From Escherichia coli (GTDB lineage: Bacteria; Pseudomonadota; Gammaproteobacteria; Enterobacterales; Enterobacteriaceae), in the NCBI RefSeq assembly GCF_965641715.1, contig NZ_OZ282453.1: a stretch of DNA of 64,000 nt; one strand, 5' to 3'. Both the position numbers and the translations under genes were made by a program. The notes beneath the pieces are model-generated. The model ran no database searches, was not told the origin of the DNA, and saw nothing but the letters and a program-made list of their open reading frames with translations. Of this stretch, positions 27,846 through 27,865 are shown piece after piece. The stretch's first letter is position 1. Each line of letters starts with the position of its first letter.

Positions 27846-27865
<20 letters not shown>
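26816..27865 (+). CDS. truD: tRNA pseudouridine(13) synthase (349 aa)
   Basis: 349 aa, N-terminus [16 protein letters not shown]; overlaps ispF stop. Confidence 0.93.

Follow-up and report, generated by a model that had tools for sequence, protein, structure and literature searches.

Gene content of the window

The window, a 64,000-nucleotide stretch of DNA, is E. coli chromosome throughout and is 97.6-99.5% identical to RefSeq E. coli by BLAST against complete genomes. Four near-identical genomes supplied the PGAP annotation, and we rechecked each reading frame in the window. The gene order begins with ygcU-ygcSRQ, ygcPON-queD (minus strand) and cysJIH, followed by cas3-casABCDE-cas1-cas2, an 11-repeat CRISPR array and iap. 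It continues with cysDNC, ygbE, ftsB, ispD-ispF-truD-surE-pcm and nlpD-rpoS, then a marR/padBCD island, pphB, mutS, ygbA, a TOBE-domain open reading frame (ORF) and flhA, and ends with hypEDCBA (minus strand), hycABCDEFGHI, an unnamed ORF, higBA, ascBFG, hydN, hypF and norW. The genes and features at the junctions under study are collected in Table 1.

Table 1 Genes and features at the junctions under study (window positions; SD, Shine-Dalgarno sequence)
Feature	Position	Strand	Remarks
casA (cse1)	14167-15675	+	Overlaps casB by 8 nt
casB (cse2)	15668-16150	+	Strong SD AAGGAGG upstream, inside casA
casD (cas5e)	17257-17931	+	ATG 17257, +2 from casC stop
casE (cas6e)	17918-18517	+	14-nt overlap with casD; SD AAAGGAGGT, −13.0 kcal/mol
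cas1	18533-19450	+	ATG 18533, +15 from casE stop
cas2	19452-19736	+	One spacer base from cas1 stop (TGAGATG); no overlap
ispD	25630-26340	+	1-nt overlap with ispF (TAATG); published N-terminal peptide ATTHLDV…
ispF	26340-26819	+	4-nt overlap with truD (ATGA)
truD (tRNA pseudouridine-13 synthase)	26816-27865	+	349 aa; last 6 codons and stop inside surE
Rejected ORF-track surE extension	27801-27845	+	TTG 27801; also TTG 27813, GTG 27840
surE Shine-Dalgarno sequence CAGGTGAT	27837-27844	+	Inside truD codons (A)CA GGT GAT
surE (5'/3'-nucleotidase)	27846-28607	+	253 aa; ATG 27846 start
truD/surE overlap, 20 nt, ATGCGCATATTGCTGAGTAA	27846-27865	+	From the window reading frames
truD stop TAA	27863-27865	+	Last base of surE Ser6 (AGT) and first two of Asn7 (AAT)
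pcm	28601-29227	+	ATG overlaps surE end by 7 nt (ATGGTAA)
hypC	43289-43561	−	ATG at 43561; 10-nt overlap with hypB end
hycE	48954-50663	+	Annotated ATG 48954, +17 from hycD stop

Identity to the best RefSeq E. coli differed by segment, at 99.5% for truD-nlpD, about 98% for cas and 97.6% for positions 44000-64000, and positions 48700-49200 were 100% identical to O157:H7 strain TR01. Not one complete genome was close at every tested segment, which suggests that the window may represent a mosaic or an unsampled lineage.

Several differences in gene content and annotation were seen along the way. The rpoS-mutS interval carries the marR/padBCD island, in which the gene for a padC-like decarboxylase subunit C (32828-34255) is intact and encodes 475 aa; in strain EC1515, otherwise the closest genome, the same gene is annotated as a frameshifted pseudogene. 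EC1515 is also missing a segment of approximately 470 nt between ygbA and flhA (38494-39008). The minus-strand ORF at 38536-39003 encodes a protein of 155 aa with two TOBE domains (Pfam PF03459, E = 1e-34) that resembles a molybdate-binding protein. A 257-aa ORF found 3' of hycI (52877-53650) is called a ‘hypothetical protein’ in RefSeq and gave no Pfam hit; a 1-nt gap interrupts its alignment to the reference copy, so the frame or the start may vary by strain. The longest nlpD ORF, from ATG 29367, encodes a full lipoprotein signal peptide with a lipobox and agrees with the K-12 pcm-nlpD spacing of +139. PGAP starts the EC1515 gene at TTG 29412, with loss of the charged n-region, and this difference between RefSeq annotations looks like an annotation inconsistency.

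The CRISPR array, of type I-E, lies 3' of cas2 at 19835-20481 and consists of 11 copies of GAGTTCCCCGCGCCAGCGGGGATAAACCG with a 61-nt period, the last repeat being degenerate. Two divergent type I-E cas operons occur at this E. coli locus, one in the window (11086-19736) and the other in EC1515 (locus L001, 5316-13869). The window variant has the K-12 junction spacings, and EC1515 carries the other variant. The casA/casB overlap is 8 nt in the window versus 4 nt in EC1515, the casD/casE overlap is 14 versus 19 nt, and casE/cas1 and cas1/cas2 are spaced by +15 and +1 in the window versus −4 and −4 in EC1515.

Conservation of the truD/surE overlap

A first-pass annotation of the window had described a 20-bp overlap between truD and surE, and the reading frames place it exactly there, at 27846-27865. 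Near-identical E. coli genomes annotated with PGAP show the same coordinates. Both frames encode recognisable conserved proteins, as TruD matches Pfam PF01142 and SurE matches NCBIfam equivalogs, and both genes are annotated across 5,420 E. coli genomes. Beyond the TAA that ends truD, its frame meets back-up TGA stops at +23 and +26, formed by AAT GAT GAY.

We then compared the junction among relatives. The 20-nt overlap was kept in all six Enterobacteriaceae relatives, and among seven Enterobacteriaceae sequences only one base varied from position −8 to position +19 of surE. This base is the third position of surE Arg2; it is synonymous in surE and gives His, Tyr or Asn at TruD residue 346. 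The core of the Shine-Dalgarno sequence, GGTGATT, was unchanged in seven of seven. In the same sequences, surE third-codon sites varied at one of six positions in the overlap versus 11 of 14 just downstream (Fisher P = 0.018), and truD third positions varied at 13 of 19 sites upstream, at none of six in the overlap and at neither of the two inside the Shine-Dalgarno sequence (GGT, GAT). When third-codon positions from both overlap frames and the two in the Shine-Dalgarno sequence were pooled, 1 of 14 varied, whereas the flanks varied at 25 of 34 (P = 5e-5). Judged from these alignments, the overlap is asymmetric, with the surE and Shine-Dalgarno sequence conserved and the TruD tail apparently tolerant of change.

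For a wider sample we scanned one genome per species for degenerate DNA encoding MRILL(S/T)NDDG, which gave 120 surE loci. truD was found upstream of surE in 14 of them, in one case (Acerihabitans) about 240 nt away, and the syntenic truD-surE pairs compared were at loci L011, L039, L056, L073, L103 and L108. Elsewhere in the gamma-proteobacteria the spacing was −1 in Rodentibacter, −4 in a Pseudomonadales MAG and +4 and +28 in Rheinheimera, and −20 was found again in Pseudoalteromonas citrea, whose TruD is 37% identical. Huber et al. 2023 (PMC10666635) give an entry for TruD@SurE (COG0585@COG0496; n = 116 species) with a median of −4 and a second value of −20, which we take to be a lower quantile. 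The geometry of the pair thus varies among lineages, and the 20-nt overlap is a lineage state rather than a fixed property of truD and surE.

Origin of the 20-nucleotide overlap

An alignment of TruD C termini showed that conservation stops at LP.G.FAT..(L/V)REL(I/V)N. Outside the Enterobacteriaceae, the tail beyond this point varies in both length and sequence: it is YKEA in Rodentibacter, AVGL in the Pseudomonadales MAG and 12-20 unrelated residues in Rheinheimera and Pseudoalteromonas. In 83 of the 120 surE loci, the first stop in the truD-equivalent frame falls at +17 to +26 (at +20 in 20 loci and at +23 in 52).

These observations point to a simple route to the overlap. The truD frame runs past its conserved catalytic part through a variable, dispensable tail and ends at the first out-of-frame stop, the TAA that the conserved surE Ser6-Asn7 codons (AGT AAY) create, which gives the 20-nt overlap. 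The conserved SurE SNDD motif is in this way a built-in stop trap, so that an in-frame upstream gene without an earlier stop ends approximately 20-26 nt inside surE. The stop-trap idea fits the recurrence of −20 in Pseudoalteromonas citrea and the published TruD@SurE entry.

Start codons

The annotated surE start, ATG 27846, is well supported. All 13 NCBIfam SurE profiles begin their match within two residues of Met 27846 (residue 16 of the extended ORF), with profile position 1 aligned exactly to this Met in 8 of the 13 models. PDB SurE chains from six genera begin at the equivalent Met, and the start is conserved in 13 species. Eight base pairs form between the Shine-Dalgarno sequence CAGGUGAU and the 16S rRNA tail GAUCACCUCCUUA (−10.0 kcal/mol; core-aligned spacing to the ATG, 5 nt), whereas the upstream alternatives score −6.2 or weaker.

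Two other surE starts were weighed. TTG 27801 opens the longest ORF, but it has a weaker Shine-Dalgarno score (−6.2), the profiles start at the ATG, and relatives carry in-frame stops in the extension, at −30 in Citrobacter werkmanii, −33 in Superficieibacter electus and −18 in Enterobacter sp. Ag1. As the surE frame is interrupted upstream of the ATG in three genera, the TTG −45 extension is not a conserved start, and we rejected it. The second, TTG +9 (27855-27857), is listed as an alternative by tetracycline-inhibited ribosome profiling (TetRP), with signal in two of three samples; the annotated ATG also has signal in two of three, and the median ratio is approximately 1.1. Its authors rated the alternative ‘not conclusive (5'ORF)’ and stated that highly expressed genes upstream, which overlap the initiation sites of ymdC and surE, made the signal at both impossible to assess. 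TTG +9 shares the surE Shine-Dalgarno sequence at a poor spacing of 14 nt, compared with 5 nt for the ATG, and the conserved SurE N terminus lies at the ATG.

The ORF track also proposes longer versions of four other genes, and the first-pass annotation had dismissed these, together with the surE extension, as unreal: TTG 18518 for cas1, GTG 17251 for casD, GTG 48933 for hycE and GTG 43588 (minus strand) for hypC. For surE and hypC this holds, on profiles, stops in relatives and the HypC peptide. HypC profiles start at the annotated Met and an N-terminal HypC peptide has been published in the TRAINSPOTTER N-terminomics data, which together rule out GTG 43588. For cas1, casD and hycE the dismissal is weakly supported, by Shine-Dalgarno geometry and consensus annotation. 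The candidate starts of Cas1, CasD and HycE are 2-7 codons apart, a distance that HMM profiles cannot separate; the cas2 profile begins two residues after the annotated Met. At cas1, the sequence GAGGTG lies approximately 7 nt upstream of ATG 18533, and TTG 18518 has no Shine-Dalgarno sequence. At casD, GAGG lies 7 nt before ATG 17257 but only 1 nt before GTG 17251, which overlaps the casC stop (GTGA). Geometry and annotation would thus favour the annotated cas1 and casD ATGs, if weakly. At hycE, neither start has a convincing Shine-Dalgarno sequence (−4.4 versus −4.8 at zero spacing) and GTG 48933 makes a classic GTGA overlap with the hycD stop; the annotated ATG may be preferred, again with weak support. 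The cryo-EM paper on FHL holds nothing decisive on the HycE N terminus. At casC/casD, casE/cas1, hycD/hycE and hypB/hypC, the E. coli loci compared are identical except for one base upstream of cas1 and are too alike to discriminate starts, as is the species-wide identity of at least 95% around hycD/hycE.

Ribosome profiling or N-terminal proteomics had been proposed as the check on these starts. Published data of both kinds go part of the way: they provide the HypC peptide, and for surE the inconclusive TetRP call. The TRAINSPOTTER supplement includes HypC, IspD and MutS, and SurE, Pcm, TruD, IspF and HycE are absent from it; the INRI-seq supplements list none of these genes, and neither source gives a SurE N-terminal peptide.

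Density of tight junctions

The window contains 48 co-directional adjacent gene pairs, 20 of which overlap. By hand count, 20 of the 48 have a spacing of −8 to +6, compared with 707 of 2,987 pairs (23.7%) across the K-12 genome of E. coli (Huber et al. 2023, PMC10666635); the difference has a nominal binomial P of 0.004, although the pairs are not independent. Genes for complex subunits are enriched for tight spacing (30.4% versus 6.8% encode complex subunits; Huber et al. 2023, PMC10666635). As operons that encode heteromeric complexes (hyc, hyp, cas, cysDN and cysJI) predominate in the window, its density of tight spacing is real but expected.

The longest same-strand overlap in the window is that of ygcS and ygcR, at 23 nt (1751-1773). 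ygcR has a near-perfect Shine-Dalgarno sequence, UAGGAGGUG (−11.5 kcal/mol), 3 nt before its ATG, and the ORF track begins two codons earlier, at GTG 1745.

The individual spacings have been tabulated before. In the K-12 table of unidirectional pairs (Huber et al. 2023, PMC10666635), ispD-ispF is given as −1, ispF-truD as −4, truD-umpG (surE) as −20 and surE-pcm as −7. The same table has casC-casD at +2, casD-casE at −14, casE-cas1 at +15, cas1-cas2 at +1, hypB-hypC at −10, ftsB-ispD at +18, hypC-hypD at −1 and hypD-hypE at −4. In K-12 MG1655 (b2743-b2747, pcm/surE(umpG)/truD/ispF/ispD; b2754-b2758, cas; b2727-b2730, hyp), stop-start distances were the same at the nine junctions compared with those entries. 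The window comes from another strain, which carries pad genes between rpoS and mutS, and the compared junctions are no different. Because the spacings equal the published K-12 values at the compared junctions, they are nothing new. Tidhar et al. 2009 cite work from the 1990s onwards for the surE-pcm operon and for the overlap of its two genes; the overlap is quoted there as 4 nt, and the current start gives 7. Gene ends that overlap or abut are commonplace in E. coli operons, and those described here already stand in the annotation and tables for K-12.

Overlap and translational coupling

The first-pass annotation had gone further and read the overlapping gene ends of the isp-pcm and cas operons as extensive translational coupling. 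Published work sets limits on the spacings at which coupling is efficient. Coupling is most efficient at −4 to +3 and drops faster with a longer overlap than with a longer gap, although natural gene pairs differ widely in how spacing affects it (Brown and Wade 2025, PMC12548453). A spacing of −8 to +10 is taken as predictive of termination-reinitiation (Huber et al. 2023, PMC10666635), and Brown and Wade (2025, PMC12548453) report from the synthetic series of Tian and Salis that coupling was absent at −25.

The overlaps that had been listed at ispD/ispF (−1), ispF/truD (−4), surE/pcm (−7) and casA/casB (−8) are as described and lie inside the −8 to +10 range, as do cas1/cas2, which abut at +1, and casC/casD (+2). 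casC/casD is, like casE/cas1 (+15), a junction beyond those originally listed. The geometry of the junctions at −1, −4, −7, −8, +1 and +2 is that of tested pairs with efficient reinitiation, so coupling there is plausible. Three junctions fall outside the range, namely truD/surE (−20), casD/casE (−14, an overlap that had also been reported correctly) and hypB/hypC (−10). With coupling efficient at about −8 to +10 and lost by −25, truD/surE is the weakest candidate.

Most of the downstream genes have their own ribosome-binding signals. The Shine-Dalgarno sequence lies inside the upstream coding region at surE, casE, casB, pcm and ispF, and that of truD is weak. The scores, in kcal/mol, are −13.0 for casE, −11.9 for casB, −10.0 for surE, −8.6 for pcm, −7.4 for ispF and −3.7 for truD; casE is the strongest of the set and surE is fourth, after casB and the alternative TTG +9, which shares its Shine-Dalgarno sequence (−10.7). 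Strong signals at the two long overlaps, casD/casE and truD/surE, are what Shine-Dalgarno-directed initiation requires.

RNA folding gave no sign that these sites are hidden. The truD/surE junction has a minimum free energy of −29.5, compared with −31.8 on average for shuffled sequences (z = +0.66), that is, no excess structure. Predicted unpaired probability over −15 to +4 averaged 0.47 at 25 tight junctions and 0.45 at 29 genes that are leading or loosely spaced (P = 0.74). Predicted accessibility of the translation initiation region (TIR) of surE, 0.54, is close to these averages; pcm reached 0.62 and ispF 0.75. Since tight junctions show no more structure in their TIRs than leading genes do, coupling of the unfolding type has no computational support.

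Transcription bears on pcm in particular. Between 25100 and 29500 (ftsB to pcm) we found no consensus promoter above chance and no excess of terminators. However, a separate pcm promoter has been reported for E. coli, and in Y. pestis the transcription start sites of pcm lie within surE (reports including Tidhar et al. 2009). As pcm can be transcribed from its own promoter, part of its translation would not depend on translation of surE.

The closest experimental comparison is with five E. coli pairs tested at −4, hyfHI, astDB, ydbH/ynbE, menDH and bioBF, of which four were coupled (Huber et al. 2019, PMC6728339). Three of the coupled pairs were predicted to form stable local structures, and the lack of coupling at bioBF correlated with an unstructured TIR (PMC6728339). 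Like the junctions here, these are co-directional operon genes with the Shine-Dalgarno sequence inside the upstream gene, and their −4 ATGA geometry is also present at ispF/truD, hycB/hycC, hycG/hycH and hypD/hypE. They differ in that all are at −4 and none comes from the window, whereas truD/surE is at −20. The Tian and Salis series and the classical spacing studies, as summarised by Brown and Wade, used synthetic constructs; for overlaps of −20 to −25 they predict that reinitiation couples genes weakly or not at all, which counts against coupling at truD/surE. Our literature search found no coupling measurement for any junction in the window and no paper specific to the truD/surE/ispF operon.

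From the coordinates, Shine-Dalgarno sequences, conservation and start support we infer which ribosomes initiate at each junction. Initiation of surE at ATG 27846 would be directed by the strong Shine-Dalgarno sequence CAGGUGAU embedded in the truD codons GGT GAT, and ribosomes that terminate truD translation and diffuse backwards would make at most a partial contribution. Given that the truD stop comes 17 nt after the surE start and that RNA structure does not mask the initiation site, surE initiation is probably mostly Shine-Dalgarno directed. We therefore favour, with good confidence, the reading that these are ordinary short same-strand overlaps in conserved operons, in which the −20 spacing stems from the surE codons and surE is mainly initiated from its own Shine-Dalgarno sequence.

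Four alternatives were considered. If all of the listed junctions including truD/surE were tightly coupled, the downstream genes would be translated mainly by ribosomes finishing the upstream gene. The enrichment of tight spacing, the coupling of four of five tested −4 pairs, the presence of Shine-Dalgarno motifs within upstream genes at nearly all junctions and the conservation of the −20 geometry in Enterobacteriaceae are all consistent with this. However, −20, −14 and −10 fall outside the reinitiation range, coupling is gone at −25 in the synthetic series, the TIRs of the isp-pcm genes are unstructured like that of the uncoupled bioBF, and pcm has its own promoter, with transcription starting within surE in Y. 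pestis. For these reasons we consider tight coupling throughout unlikely, and extensive coupling, as originally stated, is not supported.

It is also conceivable that the geometry is itself selected. An invariant −20 and Shine-Dalgarno sequence in six relatives, recurring in Pseudoalteromonas, could mean selection for coupling geometry and not dual-coding constraint alone. The Shine-Dalgarno sequence plus 20-nt overlap would then be a regulatory device, which might set the ratio of SurE to TruD synthesis, either because ribosomes that terminate truD diffuse backwards or because ribosomes still elongating on truD block the surE start. Alternatively, it might provide dual initiation at ATG 27846 and TTG 27855, for which the ambiguous TetRP signal could suggest a SurE isoform lacking the first three residues. 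We regard such a selected device as improbable.

That surE starts somewhere other than ATG 27846, either at TTG +9 (27855, leaving an 11-nt overlap) or at TTG 27801 (a 65-nt overlap), is very improbable on the profile, spacing and in-frame stop evidence described above, despite the TetRP signal at the former and the longer ORF from the latter. Gating by RNA structure, in which upstream translation melts a hairpin hiding the downstream ribosome-binding site, is one of two accepted models of coupling and matches the structures predicted at three coupled E. coli pairs, but with a truD/surE junction that folds no better than shuffled controls and tight junctions as accessible as other starts, we give it almost no credence.

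Implications for deletion design and for overlapping genes

The ordinary-overlap reading leaves the practical warning of the first-pass annotation in force: the Shine-Dalgarno sequence and start of surE lie inside truD, and the truD stop lies inside surE, so both call for caution in deletion design. A truD deletion should keep at least the last ~30 nt of the gene (the Shine-Dalgarno sequence at 27837-27844 and the surE ATG) for surE expression. A surE deletion should keep the first 20 nt, which contain the truD stop, and the 3' end, which contains the pcm start. Like care applies to deletions at casD/casE and hypB/hypC. The value of the truD/surE overlap is in this sense practical, and it does not open a new question. 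Its −20 spacing would make the pair a good natural system in which to probe how long an overlap termination-reinitiation tolerates, and the pair illustrates asymmetric overlap in textbook form: the conserved downstream N terminus dictates the sequence and a dispensable upstream tail rides along.
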